Source: a virus (Duplodnaviria; Caudoviricetes). From it: a stretch of 64,000 bases of DNA. The translations under genes were made by a program, and so were the position numbers. The notes under the pieces were generated by a model. That model searched no databases. It was not told where the DNA came from and saw only the letters and a list, made by a program, of their open reading frames with translations. Shown piece after piece: positions 21,947 to 30,935 of the stretch (position 1 is its first letter; each line of letters begins with the position of its first letter). The stretch is taken from IMG/VR virus record IMGVR_UViG_3300027278_000003. One strand, 5' to 3'.

Positions 21947-22270
21947 ATGCTTTTCACAGAGAGTGCCGCAGCGCGGGCTAAAGAACTTCTTGTAGAAAAT
22001 GAAGCAGACGAAACAGTTGCACTACGTGTGTACGTAGAAGGTGGCGGTTGTCACGGCTTTAACTATGGTTTTGGCTTTGACAACAATATTGCAGAAGATG
22101 ATACCGTTATTGAAACAAACGGAGTTAAACTAGTAGTAGACAGCATGAGTATCATGTATCTAGATAGCGCAACTATCGACTTTGTTTCTAGTATGCATGG
22201 CGATAGATTCACTATTGATAACCCAAGCGCGGCGACTACATGTGGTTGCGGATCAAGTTTTTCCATGTAA
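21947..22270 (+). CDS. A-type Fe-S carrier, ErpA-like
   Basis: LRVYVEGGGCHGFNYGF...CGCGSSF; GGAG RBS before ATG 21947. Confidence 0.9.
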   Translation: MLFTESAAARAKELLVENEADETVALRVYVEGGGCHGFNYGFGFDNNIAEDDTVIETNGVKLVVDSMSIMYLDSATIDFVSSMHGDRFTIDNPSAATTCGCGSSFSM

Positions 22271-22318
22271 GTTGATGAATAGTATAAATACTATATCAAA
22301 CTTTTAAAGGAGTGGCGT

Positions 22319-22771
22319 ATGTCCAGAGTTCTTAAATGGTGGCTTGTTTTCTGTATTTCATTAGTAATTGGCTATCTCGCATATTTTTTCGGGTGGGTTG
22401 ATGAAATCTACAGTAAAGACACTACTAAACTAAGTTTTGCAATCCTAGCAATTTATGTAGCAGCAAGTTTACATGTAGGACACGCCACTTTTAAAAAATC
22501 AAAAAAACAATCAGTCAGATCAGCAGCAAACGTAGGTTGGTTCCTAAGTGAAACTATGCTTACTCTTGGTATGATAGGTACAGTTGCAGGTTTCATTCTG
22601 ATGTTAGGATCTAGTTTCGAAAACATCGATACAAGTAATGCTGAGTCATTAAAAGAAGCATTAACTGCAATGGCGCTAGGTATGAGCACCGCACTATATA
22701 CTACACTTGTTGGTCTAATTTGCAGTCAAATACTAAAAATACAACTTGTAAATCTAGAAACAGGAGACTGA
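22319..22771 (+). CDS. MotA/TolQ/ExbB-family proton channel subunit
   Basis: LGMIGTVAGF and GMSTALYTTLVGL TM motifs. Confidence 0.75.
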   Translation: MSRVLKWWLVFCISLVIGYLAYFFGWVDEIYSKDTTKLSFAILAIYVAASLHVGHATFKKSKKQSVRSAANVGWFLSETMLTLGMIGTVAGFILMLGSSFENIDTSNAESLKEALTAMALGMSTALYTTLVGLICSQILKIQLVNLETGD

Positions 22772-22772
22772 T

Positions 22773-23486
22773 ATGGAGTCTCCAAACAGATACAAAAGTT
22801 CAACTGGTATGACTGATTTGCTATTCAATCTTCTGGTTGGATTTGTGTTCCTGTTTGTCGTAGCATTCATTCTTATCAACCCCCCAACTAAGAGAAACGA
22901 TATTCCAACAAAAGCAGAATATCTAATAATCATCGAATGGAACGAAGAATTCAACGATGATGTAGACCTGTGGGTTCAGGACCCGAACGGTGTGAAAGTT
23001 GCATTTATGAACAAAGAAGGCGGCTTGCTAAACTTAGAGAAAGACGATTTGGGATATTCTAATGATACGTTCACCCGTCCCGATGGAACCACTGATGTTT
23101 TACGTATAAATCGTGAGGTAGTCACGATGCGCGGAACACAAGCAGGTACGTATTCAGTTTCAGCACATATATATTCTAGAAGCGTCACTAGATTGGCGGA
23201 TGGGGTTGTTACCGCTGACCCAGGTCCGGGAACAATAAAGTTTACACTAATCAAAGTCAATCCTTACAAAGAATCATTTATTGCAGAATACGAATACACT
23301 GCAAGACGACAAGAAATTCCAATGATTGAATTCACACTTGATGATCAAGGAAACATCATTGACATACAGCCACTAAGACGTAGTATTATAACTGGGCGTG
23401 CAATACATCAATCTGATGCAGCAGGTGGGTCACCAAATACACCCGCAACAAATACTATTAGAACACCAACAATACACGGCCCATAA
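22773..23486 (+). CDS. ExbD/TolR/MotB-like partner with a periplasmic domain
   Basis: Single N-terminal TM containing Asp (MTDLLFNLL); directly follows the MotA-like gene. Confidence 0.55.
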   Translation: MESPNRYKSSTGMTDLLFNLLVGFVFLFVVAFILINPPTKRNDIPTKAEYLIIIEWNEEFNDDVDLWVQDPNGVKVAFMNKEGGLLNLEKDDLGYSNDTFTRPDGTTDVLRINREVVTMRGTQAGTYSVSAHIYSRSVTRLADGVVTADPGPGTIKFTLIKVNPYKESFIAEYEYTARRQEIPMIEFTLDDQGNIIDIQPLRRSIITGRAIHQSDAAGGSPNTPATNTIRTPTIHGP

Positions 23487-23502
23487 TCACAAGGAACATG
23501 CC

Positions 23503-23994
23503 ATGACAAGTTATAATCTTGATCTATTACCTTTATTAACATCTGTTGTATTTCTTACAATTGTTGTACTTTGGATTGCTGTTAAGAATTATAAAAATTT
23601 CATTATTACATTCTTGATCATTCCGCTAACACTTGTAGCAGCAATCGTGTCGCATTCAACAGTTGATAGATTGTTAGGTTATCCTGTGCATGGGGCAATC
23701 GACAAAGATAGTCTGTACTTATTCCACGTAGAGAGTGGTGACAGAGAATGGATTTATGTATGGGTAATCGCACCCGATGATTTGGGCGAGGTTAGACCAC
23801 GTGCAATTGCCATAGCTAATACAGAGCAAAATAGAAAAGCGATGCAAGAAGCCCAAGAGAAGGGCGAACAAGGACAACCTATGTCTATTGGTCAAGAAGG
23901 ACAAATGGAACTAGGCAATAATGGCGAAACAAATGGTGGAGAATACGAAGTATACGACTTCCAAATCAATCATTCGCCTGATCTAAAAAATTGA
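23503..23994 (+). CDS. Membrane protein, third gene of the motor-like operon
   Basis: AAGGA RBS before ATG 23503; two N-terminal hydrophobic segments. Confidence 0.55.
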   Translation: MTSYNLDLLPLLTSVVFLTIVVLWIAVKNYKNFIITFLIIPLTLVAAIVSHSTVDRLLGYPVHGAIDKDSLYLFHVESGDREWIYVWVIAPDDLGEVRPRAIAIANTEQNRKAMQEAQEKGEQGQPMSIGQEGQMELGNNGETNGGEYEVYDFQINHSPDLKN

Positions 23995-24059
23995 CAAAAT
24001 GCTTGACAATATTATAGTATTGTAATATAAAGAATGGTAAAATAACAACGGAGAGTGCA

Positions 24060-24242
24060 ATGAGTGATCCAGTCGTTGACGAAAAGCCACTATCAAGTAT
24101 AGAGTGGACTATACTATGCGTACTAAACCAAGAAATCACCGATCTTAAAGTTAAACCTAAACCATCTAACCAAGAACAAGTTGTCATTGACTGGCTGCAA
24201 GAACGACTTGATCGACTCAACGCACGACGACATAAAAACTGA
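24060..24242 (+). CDS. Small hypothetical protein
   Basis: GGAG RBS; downstream of tandem TTGACA boxes at 23992-24008. Confidence 0.55.
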   Translation: MSDPVVDEKPLSSIEWTILCVLNQEITDLKVKPKPSNQEQVVIDWLQERLDRLNARRHKN

Positions 24243-24493
24243 TGCAAAATAACATAATTGATGCCCGAGAAATGTTCCTCGGAAGAGCCTTGCTTGCTGC
24301 ACTAGACGCAAAGATAAATGCATACAAAGAACAATACCGTTCCTACTATCTATTAGTAGAAGAATACGGCGAAGATTTTATAGAGTTGAGATTGCATGAC
24401 CTCAATGAAGACATGCACATTGTAATTGACAAAGCACCTATGATTGTATATCTTGAAAGGCAAGAAAATGGACAGGCACTCTTTGAAATCTAA
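24242..24493 (+). CDS. Small hypothetical protein
   Basis: Stop/start coupled with the preceding ORF. Confidence 0.55.
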   Translation: MQNNIIDAREMFLGRALLAALDAKINAYKEQYRSYYLLVEEYGEDFIELRLHDLNEDMHIVIDKAPMIVYLERQENGQALFEI

Positions 24494-24614
24494 CGACGAA
24501 CTACTAAAGCAATTCATTAAGATGCGCAAGTGGAGTAAACCCACCTATGAGCAAATGATGGAATATCTTGAAATATACTCGGAATTGACTATTCGAGGTG
24601 CGATATCTGACTAA
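24468..24614 (+). CDS. Small hypothetical protein missed by the ORF track (48 aa, MDRHSLKSNDELLKQF...)
   Basis: Overlapping ATG at 24468, TAA at 24612-24614. Confidence 0.4.
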   Translation: MDRHSLKSNDELLKQFIKMRKWSKPTYEQMMEYLEIYSELTIRGAISD

Positions 24615-24652
24615 AGTCATAAATAAAAGTATAAGATAATTAAAGGAAAGTT

Positions 24653-24724
24653 ATGACATACGAACTTGTTACATCGCAAACATCAACAACACTGGGTAAT
24701 AACCCAGCGAATGATGCTGTGTGA
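24653..24724 (+). CDS. Putative attenuator leader peptide MTYELVTSQTSTTLGNNPANDAV
   Basis: CATAAATA at 24618, AAAGGA RBS, ATG 24653, TGA 24722-24724 immediately before an antiterminator arm. Confidence 0.7.
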   Translation: MTYELVTSQTSTTLGNNPANDAV

Positions 24725-24725
24725 C

Positions 24726-24799
24726 AGGGCGTAGACGATAACTAGACTAAAAGTTACGAAACGCCCTCAGAAAAAAATCTGAGGGTTTTTCATTTTTTA
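24726..24799 (+). promoter_or_regulatory. Attenuator: overlapping antiterminator and terminator
   Basis: AGGGCGT (24726-32) can pair with ACGCCCT (24761-67). CCCTCAGA (24764-71) alternatively pairs with TCTGAGGG (24778-85), followed by T tracts. Confidence 0.75.
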
Positions 24800-24801
24800 T
24801 G

Positions 24802-25244
24802 TTGACGAATCATAAAGAATGAACTAAATTATATAAATGTGATGGTCACTGACACAAACCAAAACATCGGGTTGTTCCGTAACGGACACGTGAGAGGTCA
24901 CGGTTAGCTTCTCATTCAGAGTATCCGACAGCGTTAAGGTCGGGCGGGGAGCGTCACTCATTATGATACACGCAAACTGACATTTGGGGAAAAATCTGTC
25001 CCGTGGTGGCGACCACATCTGAAAAAAGTTCTTGACGAATCGGATAAGTTTTGATAAGTTAAGAAAGTTGCGAGAGGGCAAAGGCTAGTAACCAGATGCA
25101 CTCGTAACAAAAAAGAAAAAAAGTTCTTGACAAAGACAAAATAGTTTGTTAGAGTGAGGAACATCAGAAGCGAAACGTGAGTTTCAAAAAAACTTCTGAA
25201 AAAGAAAAAAAGTTCTTGACAAAGACATTAAGTTTTGTTAGAGT
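24802..25244 (+). promoter_or_regulatory. Four tandem sigma70-type promoters with A-rich UP elements
   Basis: TTGACG 24802/TAAATT, TTGACG 25032/TAAGTT, TTGACA 25127/TAGAGT and TTGACA 25216/TAGAGT, each with a 17-bp spacer; the last two are near-identical direct repeats. Confidence 0.8.
24837..25018 (+). ncRNA. Candidate structured ncRNA A (unidentified)
   Basis: GC-richer, no credible ORF; the ends ATGTG-TGGTC and GACCACAT pair; several internal hairpins; starts at the +1 of the 24802 promoter. Confidence 0.4.
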
Positions 25245-25253
25245 TAGGAACAC

Positions 25254-25265
25254 GCTGTTTGAAAA
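25254..25265 (+). promoter_or_regulatory. boxA-like antitermination element
   Basis: GCTGTTTGAAAA just after the predicted +1 of the last promoter; resembles rrn boxA. Confidence 0.45.
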
Positions 25266-25274
25266 TTTAGAATG

Positions 25275-25580
25275 TCTTAATCTTCTAGACTTCGGTCGAT
25301 AATGAAGATGGAAACAGATTTTATCTGTTTTCAATTGTGTATTAAGAGCAAAGAAACGTGACAGGTAGGTAGGCTCCTAGGAGTAACGAACCCGTAAAAT
25401 CCTGGTGAGGGACCGAGCGTTGACGAATATGCAATTGTAAACAGAGTTTAAAAACGGCACCTGAGAACGAGTTGCTAGGCAGAAGTTGAACCGTGAAGAT
25501 GGCAGAAGTTCAACTACTCAGTAGAGGGTCACCTATACAAAGCCGTTTTTGTCTATTGCCTGGTGAACAATAGACAAATT
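25275..25580 (+). ncRNA. Candidate structured ncRNA/leader B (unidentified)
   Basis: Nested helices TCTTAAT/ATTAAGA, GAAACAGA/TCTGTTTT, AAAAACGGC/GCCGTTTTT, AGTTGAAC/GTTCAACT and GTCTATTG/CAATAGAC. Confidence 0.45.
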
Positions 25581-25585
25581 TTTAT

Positions 25586-25661
25586 TCCCAGATAGCTCAG
25601 TCGGTAGAGCAAATGACTGTTAATCATTGGGTCGGCGGTTCGAGCCCGTCTCTGGGAGCCA
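25586..25661 (+). tRNA. tRNA-Asn(GUU)
   Basis: Full cloverleaf, loop CT-GTT-AA, encoded CCA. Confidence 0.95.
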
Positions 25662-25666
25662 ATATT

Positions 25667-25756
25667 GGAGGGGTGGCAGAGTGGTTGATTGCACCGGTCT
25701 TGAAAACCGGCGTAGGCGAAAGTCTACCGTGGGTTCAAATCCCACCCTCTCCGCCA
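25667..25756 (+). tRNA. tRNA-Ser(UGA)
   Basis: CCGGT-CT-TGA-AA-ACCGG, long variable arm, G73, CCA. Confidence 0.95.
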
Positions 25757-25761
25757 AATTG

Positions 25762-25787
25762 GCCCTTATAGCTCAGTTGGTAGAGCA
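25762..25787 (+). pseudogene. 5' fragment of tRNA-Thr fused to an HNH remnant
   Basis: GCCCTTATAGCTCAGTTGGTAGAGCA is identical to 26050-26075; no anticodon or T arm follows. Confidence 0.75.
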
Positions 25788-25980
25788 ACGAGGTTATTCA
25801 TGTGAATGTTGTGGTATAAGCGAATGGCAGGGTAAACCAATCGTTTTAGAATGCGATCATATTGATGGCAATCACAAAAACAATACACCTGAAAACTTAC
25901 GATTAATTTGCCCAAATTGTCACAGTCAGACGGAAACCTATAAAAACAAAAACATAGGTAAAGGTAGATCGTATAGATAA
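25777..25980 (+). pseudogene. HNH endonuclease C-terminal fragment
   Basis: CECCG...LECDHIDGNHKNNTPENLRLICPNCHSQ zinc-finger/HNH; no RBS or normal start. Confidence 0.75.
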
Positions 25981-26049
25981 AATTTAAATTTTAGCGTATT
26001 AGGAACAACTTTTCGTTCTAAATGCTAAATAATTATATACGAAGATAAT

Positions 26050-26167
26050 GCCCTTATAGCTCAGTTGGTAGAGCAGTTGATTTGAAAGCACACGCGATAA
26101 CGATAGGTTCACAAGGTGTGTTTTCGTAATCATCAGGTCCGCGGTTCGAGTCCGTGTGAGGGCACCA
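26050..26167 (+). tRNA. tRNA-Thr interrupted by a 42-nt insertion in the anticodon loop (probably UGU)
   Basis: 118 nt; removing 26085-26126 gives a 76-nt cloverleaf with loop TT-TGT-AA, acceptor GCCCTTA/TGAGGGC, A73 and CCA. Confidence 0.8.
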
Positions 26168-26177
26168 TTCTTCTTAT

Positions 26178-26262
26178 GCGGATATGGCGAAATTGGTAGA
26201 CGCACTAGATTTAGGTTCTAGCGGGGTAACTCGTGGGGGTTCAAGTCCCTCTATCCGCACCA
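26178..26262 (+). tRNA. tRNA-Leu(UAG)
   Basis: CTAGA-TT-TAG-GT-TCTAG, long variable arm, A73, CCA. Confidence 0.93.
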
Positions 26263-26362
26263 AAAAATTTAATACCTCTGTGTCCAAATCATCATGAAAT
26301 GGTTCACAGTAAATATAAAAATGAAGTTACGCCTTTAATAGAAAGGCAAATTTCAGAAAAGT

Positions 26363-26436
26363 GGGGAATTGGTGAAGCGGGATCACGCTAGATTTGCATT
26401 CTAGAATCACGAGTTCGATTCTCGTATTCTCCACCA
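26363..26436 (+). tRNA. tRNA-Ala(UGC)
   Basis: Loop TT-TGC-AT; G3:U70 wobble and A73 alanine identity elements; CCA. Confidence 0.85.
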
Positions 26437-26455
26437 AACATATACTGGAAATTGT

Positions 26456-27196
26456 ATGAAGTATCGCTTGCCGTTCACAAAAGAAACTACATATACTAGA
26501 CATGGCTGGTTTCAATATGCTATGGTACTAAGTTTACCATTTTCTTTTTATTTTTTAACATTAGAACAATGGGTATACAGTCTTTTAGTCGGCTATGTGT
26601 TAGCTATAATTGGTCAAATTGTAGGTCACCATAGATATTTCAGCCATAGAAGTTTTAAACTAAACATCTTTTGGCACTATGTTTTATGTTACTTAACAAC
26701 AGTATTATCTATCGGTAGTGTATTAGAGTGGAGAAGAATGCATCTAGCGCATCACAAATACTCAGATACACAATATGATCCACATTCACCAACGTATAAA
26801 GGTATTTTAAAAGTATTTTTTATATCATGGTTTGATTACCCACAGGGTGTGGCTATCTCCGAAGAATCTGAAAAACTTAAATCAGAAAAAGGTATAGTAT
26901 TCTTTCATACATACTATGTATATATTATACTTTTTCATATTGCAATAGTTTCATTGATTGATCCTAAGTTGCTTTATGCTTTATACTTTTTCCCTCCGTT
27001 TCTTGCGTTAAGTATGGGTTCACTAGTGAATTCTCTTTTACACAATGAAAATGGACCGAAAGACAACATATTACTTGCATTTATTGCAGGAGGCGATGGT
27101 TATCATGCAATTCATCACGAAAAACCGTATTTGGCAACCTATCCTTTCCCAGATTTAGCAGGAATGATCATATCATTGATTAAAAAGAAAGAATAG
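26456..27196 (+). CDS. Fatty acid desaturase (delta-9-like)
   Basis: His boxes HHRYFSH, HLAHH and HAIHH; several TM segments. Confidence 0.88.
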   Translation: MKYRLPFTKETTYTRHGWFQYAMVLSLPFSFYFLTLEQWVYSLLVGYVLAIIGQIVGHHRYFSHRSFKLNIFWHYVLCYLTTVLSIGSVLEWRRMHLAHHKYSDTQYDPHSPTYKGILKVFFISWFDYPQGVAISEESEKLKSEKGIVFFHTYYVYIILFHIAIVSLIDPKLLYALYFFPPFLALSMGSLVNSLLHNENGPKDNILLAFIAGGDGYHAIHHEKPYLATYPFPDLAGMIISLIKKKE

Positions 27197-27213
27197 TATA
27201 AATAAACGTATAA

Positions 27214-27288
27214 GCGGGCGTAGCTCAGTGGTAGAGCGTCACCTTGCCAAGGTGAGGGTCGTGAGTTCGAATCTCATCGCCCGCTCCA
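27214..27288 (+). tRNA. tRNA-Gly(GCC)
   Basis: TCACC-TT-GCC-AA-GGTGA, U73, CCA. Confidence 0.95.
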
Positions 27289-27366
27289 AATTCCTAGCAT
27301 ATGATTTGACTATGCCATTCGGGTAACATACTTCCCGTTGAAACAATCACAAAAGTCACTGCTTTA

Positions 27367-27442
27367 GGGAGATTAGCTCAGTTGGTAGAGCGTCTCGTTT
27401 ACACCGAGAATGTCAGGAGTTCGAGTCTCTTATCTCCCACCA
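27367..27442 (+). tRNA. tRNA-Val(UAC)
   Basis: TCTCG-TT-TAC-AC-CGAGA, CCA. Confidence 0.95.
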
Positions 27443-27496
27443 TTTCACTTTCTCAAATCAGATAAATACCGTATAAGTTCTTTATGGGAGAAAGTC

Positions 27497-27757
27497 ATGA
27501 TCAAGCGTACAGGTTTAGCAAAAAGAGTGTCGGCGAAAGCGGCTCCTACTAAAAACGTATCTACACGTAAAAAAACAATTACAAAAACTGTCGAAGCAGA
27601 GGCTGCGCCAATGTTTACATTTAACATCACTGCTGGTGTTGAAAATCTAGGTTCAGTTATTGAAGCAAACGAAGAAGCAGCACTTGCGAAAGCAAGAAAG
27701 AAATTCGGCGCGCCATTAAATTATGGTGTGTTCCAATATACAGCAAAGCGTGTATAA
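27497..27757 (+). CDS. Small basic protein (86 aa)
   Basis: GGGAG RBS before ATG 27497; GATAAATA at 27461. The longer track ORF starts inside tRNA-Val. Confidence 0.6.
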   Translation: MIKRTGLAKRVSAKAAPTKNVSTRKKTITKTVEAEAAPMFTFNITAGVENLGSVIEANEEAALAKARKKFGAPLNYGVFQYTAKRV

Positions 27758-27897
27758 TTAAAGTTTCCAAACGTCAGTTGACGGCGTGACTGTTAGGAGA
27801 GACTAACATTTAAACTACATTTATGTGACGTAACCTTACTTAGAGTATGAAGTGCGTATCACCGAAACTTCCCAAGACATTCTAAATTTTTAAACAC

Positions 27898-27974
<77 letters not shown>

Positions 27975-27983
27975 TTTTTAATT

Positions 27984-28011
27984 GCGGTTGTAGCTCAGTT
28001 GGTTAGAGCAT
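27984..28011 (+). pseudogene. Truncated tRNA 5' fragment
   Basis: GCGGTTG-TA-GCTC-AGTTGGTTA-GAGC-AT, then an abrupt end. Confidence 0.65.
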
Positions 28012-28019
28012 TAAATAAA

Positions 28020-28094
28020 GGACTGTTGGTTTATCGGTTAGAATTCTCGCCTGTCACGCGAGGGAGACGGGTTCGATTCCCGTACAGTCCGCCA
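28020..28094 (+). tRNA. tRNA-Asp(GUC)
   Basis: CTCGC-CT-GTC-AC-GCGAG, G73, CCA. Confidence 0.9.
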
Positions 28095-28166
28095 TTAATA
28101 AGATATACTATGACAAATACCGGTACCGTTTGTGGAAAGTGATAACAGTTATAGTATATCTTTTAT

Positions 28167-28241
28167 GGCCCGTTCGTCTATCGGTTAGGACGCTAGGTTT
28201 TCAACCTAGAAAGAGGGGTTCGATTCCCCTACGGGCTACCA
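28167..28241 (+). tRNA. tRNA-Glu(UUC)
   Basis: CTAGG-TT-TTC-AA-CCTAG, CCA. Confidence 0.93.
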
Positions 28242-28279
28242 ATCATTATACTAAATATCATCATGAAAGATATATCATC

Positions 28280-29362
28280 ATGAAAGATTTAAAACAGTTG
28301 CAAGAACACTACGGATGTTCTCTGCCTTTTATCAACCAATACGTAGTAAAAGACCCAAAAGGTTACTCTGTTAAGCCTTGTTGCATGTCAACTGTTACCC
28401 CACCAGAGTATGTTGATACCTATAAAGAATTAAAAAATCATAAAATTATAGAAGAAACCCAAAATGCTTTTCTAGAAAAGCGTTGGCCTTCCACCTGTAC
28501 GATTTGTAAACTAGACGAAAGCGCCGGAGAACGCAGCTACAGGCAGAGCATGTGGTACAGACATATAAACCACTTTGAAACCAAAAAATTAGTATGGGAT
28601 CTACGGTTTGATAACGTTTGTAATCTAAAATGTATAATGTGTAACCCTAGTAACAGCAGTAAATGGAACGAAGATTTAGACATTTACAACCAATTCAATG
28701 ATACAAATATTGTAGAACATTTTACCCGAAAAACATCAGACATTGACGACATATTAAATGAATGCAGAAACACCGCAATTGAGATAAACCTATTGGGCGG
28801 TGAACCATTTTATAGCAAGAATACGTTTGATTTCATAGAACGACTTTCGGCTAATGTATGGAATACTGAAAATACTGAATTAATATTCGTCAGCAATGGG
28901 AACGGGTTGAACAACAAATGGATAGAATTGTTAAAGCGTTTCCGAAAAATATCAATAATGTTAAGTTTAGATGGTGTAGGTGAGTTAGCAAACTACATAA
29001 GATACCCAACCGATTGGGATCAATATTTAAAAAATGTTGACATTATAAAAGAGAACAATTGGAATCTAGCGTTTAATATAACTTGGAGTGCGTTAAATCT
29101 ATATCAACATAATGAAATCATAGAGTTTTGTAAACAAAATCATATAAGACGCAGAAATAACATTTTACATAATCCAAATTATCTAGGCTTTAATGCACTA
29201 AAAAATTTGAAGCCTATAGGTGTTAAAAACATAGATTACTACATAGAAAACCACCACGAGTACGATGATACTCTAAATAAAAAATTAAAAAACTATCTAG
29301 AAACATTGGACGCCAAACGAAACTTGAATAGTAAAAATTTAATGCCATGGTGCTGGGAATGA
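28280..29362 (+). CDS. Radical SAM protein with an N-terminal SPASM/twitch-like Cys cluster
   Basis: CNLKCIMC, GGEP, PCC and CTIC motifs; start reassigned to ATG 28280 because the track start lies across tRNA-Glu. Confidence 0.85.
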   Translation: MKDLKQLQEHYGCSLPFINQYVVKDPKGYSVKPCCMSTVTPPEYVDTYKELKNHKIIEETQNAFLEKRWPSTCTICKLDESAGERSYRQSMWYRHINHFETKKLVWDLRFDNVCNLKCIMCNPSNSSKWNEDLDIYNQFNDTNIVEHFTRKTSDIDDILNECRNTAIEINLLGGEPFYSKNTFDFIERLSANVWNTENTELIFVSNGNGLNNKWIELLKRFRKISIMLSLDGVGELANYIRYPTDWDQYLKNVDIIKENNWNLAFNITWSALNLYQHNEIIEFCKQNHIRRRNNILHNPNYLGFNALKNLKPIGVKNIDYYIENHHEYDDTLNKKLKNYLETLDAKRNLNSKNLMPWCWE

Positions 29363-29387
29363 TATTTGGCAGTAGCTAAATATCAAT

Positions 29388-30935
29388 ATGAATTCAAAAA
29401 TGTCAGATATTGTTATATTCTCGGAAAGTAGAGTTGATATGAATGGGCTGGGATCTCGCAGTTGGGGATCTTATAGTATAGCCTCACATTTTCGTTCTAT
29501 AGGTTTTTCAACTCAAGTAATTGATTACATATACAATATGAGCCATGAAGAATTAGAGAGAGCAATCAAAAAATATGTTTCATCTGATACCAAAGTTGTT
29601 GGGATTGGCGCAGCATATTGGGAATTTTATCCAAACCATATCTTGCAACAGCTTTCTAAAATTTCAAAACTAATAATTGAATTTTCAAAAAATATAAACC
29701 CAAACATAAAAGTCATAGCTGGTGGTCCTAGTGTGAGAATTTTTCTGAGAGAAAACTTCCCCAAAGTTGATGCCATTTTCGAAGGCTTTTCAGAAAGTGA
29801 TTCTAAAAAATATCTAGAACACGTGTTCAATAATACGCCGAAACCGTTAGAAAATAGTATTGTTAGAAATACTTCAATTTATAATAATGTAGTGGGTGAA
29901 CAGAGTTTTTTCTCAAAAAGTAAAACTTCATATGTGGAACATGACTACATATTGAAAAATGAAGTTCCCATACTAGAAATAGGCAGAGGTTGCATATTCA
30001 ATTGTAAATTTTGTAGTTTTGCGCTTAAAGGTAAGAAGAAGTTAGATTACATAAAAGATCAATCGCTGTTACGGGATGAGTTAATAGAAAATTACGAAAA
30101 GTATGGCATGGATAAGTACATCTTTGTGGATGATACTTTCAACGATAGCCAATACAAACTAGATGAATTGTACAAAACTTTTTCTTCATTGCCATTTAAA
30201 ATGAACTTTTCTGCATTTTTGAGACTTGACTTGTTGAACGCACACCAAGATCAAATTCAACAGTTACAGGAAATGGGGTTAACGTCTACATTTTTTGGAG
30301 TAGAAACATTTCACTATCAAGCGGCAAAAGAAATTGGTAAGGGCATTCACCCAGATAAAGTAAAAGAGCTACTTCATAGGCTCACATCAGTAGATTGGAA
30401 GGACAAAGTTAAAGTAGCCATCACATTACTTATTGGTTTACCACATGAAACCTACGAATCACACGAAGAAACACTAAAATGGATTTTAGACGAAAACAAT
30501 TTAGTAAATCAAGTTGTCCCACATCCACTGATAATACAAGATCCCAAAACACTAATAATACCGGAACAATATCCAAATGTGAGTAAATATCAATTAGAAT
30601 CCGAAAAGTATGGATTTTATTGGAAAGATGACCCGCTTGAATGGCATAATCACATCGGTCCTGTGAAATCTAGACAGGAAACTCTGCAACTATATGCAAG
30701 ATACATAGAAGCGGTGAAGCGCAGTAACCGAGCAATTCAGGGCGGATTTAACTTGCATAGATTATGGCCACTGGTTAAAGTTTATAAACCAAATTTAGAA
30801 TACGATGACTTACTAAAAATGTCAAGGAAAGAATTCGATGACCTGTCTACATACCTATTAGAAAAAGACATGGTAGAATCAACTTTAGTCAACACTTATA
30901 AGAGAAAATTATTAGAAGATGACCGGACCCTATAA
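29388..30935 (+). CDS. B12-binding-domain radical SAM protein
   Basis: IAGGP, RGCIFNCKFC, FVDDTF, FFGVET and LLIGLPHET motifs. Confidence 0.85.
   Translation: MNSKMSDIVIFSESRVDMNGLGSRSWGSYSIASHFRSIGFSTQVIDYIYNMSHEELERAIKKYVSSDTKVVGIGAAYWEFYPNHILQQLSKISKLIIEFSKNINPNIKVIAGGPSVRIFLRENFPKVDAIFEGFSESDSKKYLEHVFNNTPKPLENSIVRNTSIYNNVVGEQSFFSKSKTSYVEHDYILKNEVPILEIGRGCIFNCKFCSFALKGKKKLDYIKDQSLLRDELIENYEKYGMDKYIFVDDTFNDSQYKLDELYKTFSSLPFKMNFSAFLRLDLLNAHQDQIQQLQEMGLTSTFFGVETFHYQAAKEIGKGIHPDKVKELLHRLTSVDWKDKVKVAITLLIGLPHETYESHEETLKWILDENNLVNQVVPHPLIIQDPKTLIIPEQYPNVSKYQLESEKYGFYWKDDPLEWHNHIGPVKSRQETLQLYARYIEAVKRSNRAIQGGFNLHRLWPLVKVYKPNLEYDDLLKMSRKEFDDLSTYLLEKDMVESTLVNTYKRKLLEDDRTL

Follow-up and report, generated by a model that had tools for sequence, protein, structure and literature searches.

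Genomic context of module A

The DNA analysed here is a stretch of 64,000 nucleotides (the window), which corresponds to the minus strand of G000:C1:32556-96555 in an IMG/VR virus record of 342,181 bases with an estimated completeness of 92%. This genome, G000, belongs to a marine jumbo phage that has not been cultured. Among cultured phages, the closest family-B DNA polymerases are those of Rak2-like and Atu_ph07-like jumbo phages, with no more than 49% identity, and the whole stretch is present in many 2017 marine metagenome runs. In addition, ARAGORN recognises 28 tRNA genes in G000, organised in two arrays.

Two small conserved genes of 83 and 48 amino acids (window positions 24242-24614) are followed by a compact element, designated module A, that comprises a promoter, a Shine-Dalgarno (SD) sequence, an open reading frame (ORF) of 22-23 codons, an antiterminator and an intrinsic terminator. 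Further downstream on the same strand, tRNA array 2 (25586..28241), the presumed target of module A, encodes tRNAs for Asn, Ser, Thr (interrupted), Leu, Ala, Gly, Val, Pro, Asp and Glu. The initial annotation placed the element in front of a tRNA operon; the array does lie downstream, although it is not directly adjacent, as ~750 nt of non-coding DNA and four promoters intervene. Related contigs L104, L179 and L181 carry a 202-aa gene with an Asp/Arg-hydroxylase domain between the two small genes and module A (L104:2867-3466, L179:4367-4975), and the window is without it at that site. A blastn search of positions 24400-25000 against cultured phages gave no match, and locus searches with the neighbouring 237-aa and radical-SAM proteins found no related loci.

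Promoter and leader ORF

Module A opens with a late-type promoter motif, CATAAATA, at 24618..24625 on the plus strand, which forms part of a conserved cassette, ATAAATAAAAGTATAAGATA, kept in all copies of the module. The motif thus stands where the initial annotation had proposed a late promoter, and it is enriched in intergenic DNA ahead of start codons: ATAAATA occurs 70 times on the strand of the window and 19 times on the opposite one, and 50 of the 70 occurrences are located in or at the edge of intergenic DNA, which makes up 10% of the genome, mostly 25-50 nt before a start codon. The late cassette (ATAAATA followed by aa(a/c)gtataag) is also found 16 nt upstream of tRNA-Gly (27197), and in relatives it precedes tRNAs as well. 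The copy in the window, TATAAATAaacgtataag, spans 27197-27213 and ends 9 nt before tRNA-Gly, and in relatives the cassette stands immediately 5' of tRNA-Thr(UGU), which suggests that some tRNAs have private late promoters.

Downstream of the promoter, the SD sequence AAAGGA (24642..24647, plus strand) lies 5 nt upstream of the ATG of the leader ORF (24653..24724, plus strand), which encodes MTYELVTSQTSTTLGNNPANDAV in 23 codons followed by TGA and includes five Thr (all ACA), three Asn and two Ser codons. Both the ribosome-binding site and the 23-codon frame are located exactly where they had been proposed. The 5' leader therefore contains a short predicted ORF with a ribosome-binding site, as expected of an attenuator, and this arrangement is kept in four versions of the module. 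When the transcript is dinucleotide-shuffled, 3% of the shuffles contain an SD sequence with an ORF of such length. The frequency of Thr codons (5 of 22) corresponds to P = 0.015 when uncorrected for the 20 amino acids, and the use of ACA for all five has P = 0.036 only, because ACA is the commonest Thr codon (51%). Moreover, the sequence that forms the 5' arm of the hairpin described below is A/C-rich, a composition that by itself favours open frames and Thr, Asn and Gln codons.

RNA structures and the position of the ribosome

Three mutually related structures can be drawn on the module A transcript, whose fold as a whole has z = -8.5. The first one, overlooked in the initial annotation, is a long hairpin of 95 nt (regions 1:2; 24649..24743, plus strand) that pairs the region of the start codon with the stretch just past the stop codon, enclosing both, and that would act as an anti-antiterminator. 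The second one is the antiterminator (regions 2:3; 24726..24767, plus strand), in which AGGGCGT (24726-24732) pairs with ACGCCCT (24761-24767) around an inner TAACT/AGTTA helix; this pairing had been claimed previously, and the fold of 24720-24770 bears it out with -15.8 kcal/mol and z = -4.2. The third one is the intrinsic terminator (regions 3:4; 24763..24799, plus strand), formed by GCCCTCAGA and TCTGAGGGT as a 9-bp stem with a 6-nt loop and -18.9 kcal/mol, followed by the T-run T5CAT6. A GC-rich terminator with a T-run is thus interposed between the leader ORF and the candidate controlled genes. Antiterminator and terminator have GCCCT in common and are, as had been stated, mutually exclusive, while the 5' arm of the antiterminator is held by the 24649-24743 hairpin, an anti-antiterminator that overlaps the ORF. 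Finally, the start codon is paired in the finished RNA (in L104 the SD sequence is paired too), which implies that translation of the leader must start co-transcriptionally, or not at all.

The effect of a ribosome on these structures was modelled by masking the RNA up to 12 nt past the A-site codon, an assumed footprint, and by folding the remainder before the 3' arm of the terminator exists. With the ribosome at codons 2-20, the antiterminator is predicted to capture the 5' arm of the terminator with a mean pairing probability of 0.54-0.79, a capture in which only five of the nine bases of that arm take part. The probability then decreases to 0.33 at codon 21 and to 0.02-0.03 from codon 22 to the stop codon. 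The L104 copy behaves as the window copy in the model, except at the stop codon, where the value returns to 0.52. The initial annotation had suggested folding both conformers; both are predicted to form, and in the model they are switched by the position of the ribosome (codons 2-20 versus 22 to stop). Thus, under the assumed footprint of 12 nt beyond the A-site codon, the model reproduces the geometry in which stalling of the ribosome releases the antiterminator and its arrival at the stop codon blocks it. When no ribosome is present, the minimum-energy fold of the full-length RNA consists of hairpin 1:2 and the terminator, and the equilibrium fold of the unfinished transcript is ambiguous.

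The region between the terminator and the tRNA genes

A sigma70-like promoter (TTGACG, 17 nt, TAAATT; 24802..24830, plus strand) is located immediately 3' of the terminator and would be ungated by the switch. Further sigma70-like promoters occur on the same strand at ~25030, 25127-25155 and 25216-25244, those at 25127 and 25216 being near-identical repeats within the ~750 nt of non-coding DNA (24801-25577). Hence, four sigma70-like promoters (24802-25244), which the initial annotation had missed, separate the terminator from the first tRNA, located 790 nt away. The promoter TTGACGAATCA is found 3' of the terminator in all module A copies and also in module C (see below). The -35 boxes flanking module A (gttATGACA and gttcTTGACG) could derive from a partial duplication.

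The presence of these promoters has a direct consequence for any regulatory reading of the locus. An attenuator would be expected to have no further promoter between its terminator and the genes that it controls; four of them lie there in module A, whereas module B, described below, has none. Therefore, the switch can gate only transcription from the late promoter and from the upstream late operon, and array 2 does not depend on read-through past the module A terminator.

The non-coding region probably encodes stable RNAs, since metatranscriptome contigs from three datasets match 24801-25577 exactly. These contigs have a depth of 2-4, do not include the leader and may in part reflect carry-over of DNA; one of them starts at 24801, just past the T-run. 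An Rfam search of 24801-25577 gave no match. Within array 2, positions 26050-26164 (115 nt) match the Rfam tRNA model and are not called by ARAGORN; they form a tRNA with an insertion of ~40 nt, Thr UGU according to the initial annotation, beside an ORF at 25627-25980. The array of L104 contains an uninterrupted tRNA-Thr(UGU) after tRNA-Asn, and another relative carries four tandem copies of the 23-nt unit caccaaatgtttattagtatata in its tRNA array, between tRNA-Leu and tRNA-Ala (L115:4140-4245).

Conservation of module A in related phages

Relatives of G000 fall into two groups with respect to module A. The more distant ones are the IMG/VR records G001-G004, whose polymerase is 82-88% identical to that of G000 and whose 83-aa neighbour gene is only 46-54% identical. 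The closer ones, found by protein-guided searches of metagenome assemblies, are contigs whose 83-aa neighbour protein is 63-82% identical, and these carry four distinct versions of the module. The leader peptides of these versions are MTYELVTSQTSTTLGNNPANDAV in the window and L184, MSYELVTSTSTTLDNNPANGAV in L104, MNYTLVTTETSTTLGNPVNDAV in L179 and L180, and MNYTLVTAETSTTLGNPVNDAA in L181-L183. The L184 module is identical over the part that its contig retains, bar one base upstream of the ORF, and its 83-aa gene is only 67% identical, a combination that suggests mosaic exchange of the array region. The idea that module A was an insertion unique to G000 was overturned by these copies.

All four versions keep the promoter cassette, the ATG, a length of 22-23 codons and the same stop position (TGA or TAA), and the SD sequence of the other three is AAGGA or AGAGGA, though the spacer sequence differs. 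The leader ORF remains open despite two independent indels, each of 3 nt and thus frame-preserving, and despite 6-12 substitutions in each pairwise comparison, none of which created a stop codon. When the same amount of change was simulated by random mutation, all three lineages kept the ORF in 1.8% of cases (P = 0.018). The stop codon lies one base before the 5' arm of the antiterminator in three of the four versions and two bases before it in L181.

The RNA structures have also been maintained, although module A copies are ~90-100% identical and few changes are therefore informative. The terminator is invariant in all copies, and the outer helix of the antiterminator pairs in 4/4 versions, a single GC pair having become GU. 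L104 has other complementary strands in place of the inner antiterminator helix (-14.9 kcal/mol, z = -4.8), and in this copy the base helix of the long hairpin has been rebuilt from different sequences and also sequesters the SD sequence, while the apical stem of this hairpin shows a compensatory GC to AU double change. In L179 and L181, several base pairs that involve the 5' arm of this hairpin are lost, and the codons stay within one amino-acid set. The geometry of the trp, thr and his attenuators, which the initial annotation had recognised in the window copy, is supported by the joint maintenance of promoter, SD sequence, start codon, frame, stop position, antiterminator and terminator in four copies.

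The more distant relatives have no module A at the homologous junction. In G003 and G004, the late cassette leads directly into a sigma70 promoter and the array, and in G001 a sigma70 promoter follows the homologous small genes. In G002 (L099:2870-3040), a sigma70 promoter precedes an RNA of ~110 nt without an ORF, which ends in a terminator (CCCGGC...GTCGGG plus T-run). This junction is occupied by different small modules in different relatives. According to the initial annotation, the attenuator reading would fall if relatives lacked a conserved ORF and complementary arms; both are present in four versions of module A, but they are absent from G001-G004. No second copy of module A was found in G000 or in G001-G004, and the exact terminator pattern had no match in IMG/VR. 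A degenerate pattern of the linker gave a single match, in an unrelated GC-rich contig, which was judged to be due to chance.

Modules B and C

A covariance model of module A picked up an element of low similarity within the tRNA array of one relative. This element, module B, occurs at 14 loci in relatives, in about six diverged forms, and comprises late and sigma70 promoters, an SD-like run, an ORF of 19-20 codons, a small hairpin that holds the stop codon, and a terminator; examples of its leaders are MSNTTTYITCWPPSNWGMF, MSQTNTIYITNWPPLIWGMS, MSRSIQQYILNWCLHRGMS and MHKTSLQSFYWCPPKGRGLS. The stop-holding hairpin is invariant and the pairs of the terminator stem covary. Thus, the search for an ORF plus terminator with covarying stems ahead of tRNA arrays in relatives, which had been proposed together with the original observation, was answered by module B. 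The first gene 3' of module B is tRNA-Trp(CCA) in all 14 loci. In one type (L133), this gene begins ~8 nt past the T-run, so that no promoter can intervene. Module B is absent from G000, which has no tRNA-Trp. In L120:3268-3357 and L116:4640-4722, a conserved spacer of ~85 nt with the closing stem ACACACTA / TAGTGTGT separates the module B terminator from tRNA-Trp; this spacer, which the L133 type does not have, could serve as a processing stalk.

The Trp codon of the module B leader is invariant, while the remainder of the peptide drifts. In L137, the C-terminal part is even frameshifted, yet the frame stops 4 nt from the usual place. In the consensus fold, CCACC (the Pro codons after Trp) pairs with a G-run, which has an alternative partner in the C-run within the 5' arm of the terminator. 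In six of nine variants, the first Trp codon is the last stall position that frees the G-run, the modelled probability of a free G-run being ~1.0 at the Trp codon, then 0.5 and then ~0.1. The value at the Trp codon is already reduced in L134 and L137 (0.57 and 0.76), and the codon after Trp is still permissive in L142 and L162.

Module C is located in G000 itself (L170:3748-4003, minus strand), before array 1b and ~37.8 kb upstream of window position 1. It contains late and sigma70 promoters, AAGGA, an ORF of 30 codons (MKQSYGHKQIISNNIRWCQFMYGCGGSFGL) ending in TAG, a 12-bp terminator and the TTGACGAATCA promoter. Lys, Gln, Ile, Cys, Phe, His and Met codons abound in its leader, and array 1b encodes, in order, tRNAs for Met, Cys, Met, Lys, Ile, Pro and Gln, a CUA suppressor, and tRNAs for Met, Met, Arg, Phe and His. 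The ribosome model is permissive at codons 2-20 of this leader and blocking from codon 22 onwards. The suppressor tRNA has the anticodon CUA (amber; labelled Pyl by ARAGORN) and lies at reverse-complement genome coordinates 209371-209445. Read-through of the TAG codon of module C would carry ribosomes across the terminator, which hints at a possible role of stop-codon recoding. Searches of the fragmentary relatives yielded no copy of module C. The linker CAAAAGTTATTTTAA.G.AA.GCCCC is common to modules B and C, and module A shares AAAAGTTACGAAACGCCC; on these sequence grounds the three modules are probably homologous in their 3' parts, to which different leaders are joined.

Codon composition of the leaders and tRNA content of the arrays

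The match between leader codons and array tRNAs was scored under strict wobble. In leader A, 17 of 22 sense codons are cognate to array-2 tRNAs (background 0.45; P = 0.02 against windows of real phage genes), and among the 20 codons that make up the sensing part of leader C (positions 2-21), 12 are cognate to array 1b (background 0.27, P = 0.005). Residues served by one array only are distributed 19 versus 1 in leader A and 11 versus 15 in leader C (Fisher p = 1.7e-4), and 16:1 versus 5:13 when the sensing parts alone are compared (Fisher p = 8e-5). Leader A is thus enriched in codons tied to the presumed controlled genes, as judged both from its own composition and from its contrast with leader C.

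This match is retained as the leader evolves. Nine of the 23 positions of leader A vary across the four versions (T/S/N, E/T, S/T/A, G/D and A/V) and only residues of the array-2 set are used, bar Gln in the window copy. Each leader has 4-6 Thr ACA codons. Leader A is probably multivalent, involving Thr, Ser, Asn, Leu, Val, Ala and other codons, rather than a pure ACA or Thr-specific sensor. A correspondence between the last permissive codon and the first tRNA of the array (Trp in module B, Asn in module A) was considered and abandoned, since the arrays of L179 and L181 start with tRNA-Arg(UCU), for which there is no leader codon.

A candidate attenuator of tRNA synthesis and alternative explanations

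Taken together, these features are best accounted for by a ribosome-mediated (leader-peptide) transcription attenuator, comparable to thrL or trpL and placed before a phage tRNA array, a reading of module A to which a probability of about 65% is assigned. Transcription would start ~6 nt after CATAAATA or arrive from the upstream late operon, and a ribosome would load at AAAGGA/ATG while the RNA is being synthesised. If the leader were read smoothly to its last two sense codons or to the stop codon, the ribosome would cover AGGGCGU, the antiterminator would be blocked, the terminator would form and transcripts would end at ~24795-24800. If the ribosome were delayed at any of codons 2-20, which are for the most part Thr ACA, Ser, Asn, Leu, Val and Ala codons and would be read by tRNAs encoded downstream, it would hold the 5' half of the long hairpin. 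Starvation and host anticodon nucleases, both named in the initial annotation, would be candidate causes of such a delay. The freed AGGGCGU could then pair with ACGCCCU and pre-empt the terminator stem, and the polymerase would continue into the stable-RNA and tRNA genes. Without a ribosome, the long hairpin would hold AGGGCGU and termination would ensue. As the sigma70-like promoters past the terminator are ungated, such a switch would add demand-driven transcription on top of their activity, most plausibly late in infection. Translation of the leader, the timing and the response to decoding speed are the conjectural elements of this scheme.

Among the alternatives, a free-standing late gene for a small structured RNA of ~165 nt, trans-acting or stable, in which the ORF would be a by-product of the A/C-rich hairpin arm, is unlikely. 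Module A is a self-contained unit with its own promoter and terminator and a very stable fold, in front of a tRNA array that has its own promoters, and the pairing of the start codon (and, in L104, of the SD sequence) in the mature RNA would suit a non-coding product, as would the compensatory changes that keep the hairpins while altering amino acids and the ORF-less, sigma70-driven RNA of ~110 nt with a terminator at the same junction in G002. A structural RNA would not, however, explain why ORF, SD sequence, start codon and stop position survive two in-frame indels (P ~0.02), or why the 1:2 hairpin erodes in L179 and L181 with the codon composition kept. Further arguments against it are that each of the two modules of G000 has a leader whose composition reflects the array behind it, that module B sits between promoters and a promoter-less tRNA-Trp, and that no Rfam family matches.

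It is quite unlikely that the locus contains nothing beyond a constitutive terminator, partial or full, which insulates the tRNA and stable-RNA genes from the late operon upstream or sets a fixed low level of read-through, with a small ORF devoid of regulatory role. The terminator is indeed strong and invariant, it ends the upstream plus-strand operon, and unregulated promoters come directly after it; moreover, RNA contigs begin right after it, at 24801, which is weak evidence. Nevertheless, a constitutive terminator would leave unexplained the conserved 2:3 pairing with its replaced inner helix, the placement of the stop codon next to the 5' arm of the antiterminator, the codon match, and the position of the Trp codon of module B at or next to the boundary between permissive and non-permissive codons. 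Lastly, a small protein gene, with the peptide of 22-23 residues as its product and an ordinary terminator behind it, would be in line with the conserved ORF, SD sequence and promoter, but it is highly improbable given that 9/23 positions vary among close copies through non-conservative changes (E/T, G/D), that modules B and C combine the same architecture with unrelated peptides (frameshifted at the C-terminus in the B variant L137), and that the peptide is hydrophilic and without recognisable motif.

The attenuator reading of module A can be extended to the three modules as a family of homologous codon-matched attenuators that would provide a homeostatic, demand-driven supply of viral tRNAs, a generalisation whose chances are about even. 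The decoding speed of the codons served by a tRNA block would set the transcription that enters that block, and the leaders would evolve to track the tRNA content of their arrays. These considerations bear on the question of why large phages carry tRNA genes and how these are regulated. If the proposal is true, leader codons that mirror the downstream tRNAs would constitute direct genomic evidence that phage tRNAs are made on decoding demand, and the reach of classical attenuation would widen beyond amino-acid and synthetase operons to include tRNA genes and viruses. The modules would, in addition, represent compact and portable sensors of codon-specific translation speed.

Comparison with known systems

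Window positions 22000-30000 and the module A, B and C loci were compared with the Rfam models Thr_leader, Trp_leader, His_leader, Leu_leader and T-box, none of which matched at E values up to 1. A search of the full-text literature retrieved no paper on leader-peptide attenuation of tRNA genes, in phages or elsewhere, in keeping with the initial annotation, to which no characterised phage attenuator of a tRNA array was known.

In the tRNA gene cluster of phage T4, stable non-tRNA RNAs known as species 1 and 2 are encoded. Like module A, these are small structured RNAs in the tRNA region of a T4-like phage, and we know of no conserved ORF-plus-terminator switch associated with them; they are the model for the small-RNA alternative considered above. 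T-box elements resemble module A in being terminator/antiterminator switches that report on the tRNA pool, but they bind uncharged tRNA directly and lack a leader ORF, whereas the proposed sensor of module A is the translating ribosome. A closer functional parallel is found in pheM, the leader of pheST, where leader-peptide attenuation of the phenylalanyl-tRNA synthetase operon responds to charged tRNA. As in module A, a gene of the translation apparatus is subject to attenuation; unlike it, pheM regulates synthetase rather than tRNA genes and is cellular, not viral.

The enterobacterial leaders thrL and ilvL (of ilvGMEDA) share with module A a short SD-led ORF rich in regulatory codons, a three-way 1:2 / 2:3 / 3:4 pairing with an intrinsic terminator, and a stop codon whose position lets a ribosome that terminates there mask the antiterminator. 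Module A differs from them in that it precedes phage tRNA and stable-RNA genes instead of amino-acid biosynthesis genes, in its promoter of T4-late type and in the unregulated promoters 3' of its terminator. Moreover, its regulatory codons are scattered rather than arranged in long tandem runs, and it has no sequence or Rfam relationship with these leaders. Module B, in turn, resembles trpL (RF00513), with an invariant Trp codon just 5' of region 1 (CCACC) and with the G-run and the terminator C-run in the roles of regions 2 and 3, respectively, although it would control tRNA-Trp itself and has one conserved Trp codon, not two in tandem. Thus, the proposed mechanism is the classical one, as known from thrL, ilvL and trpL and, for a synthetase, from pheM, and what is new is its target, its viral setting and the matching of the leaders to their arrays.
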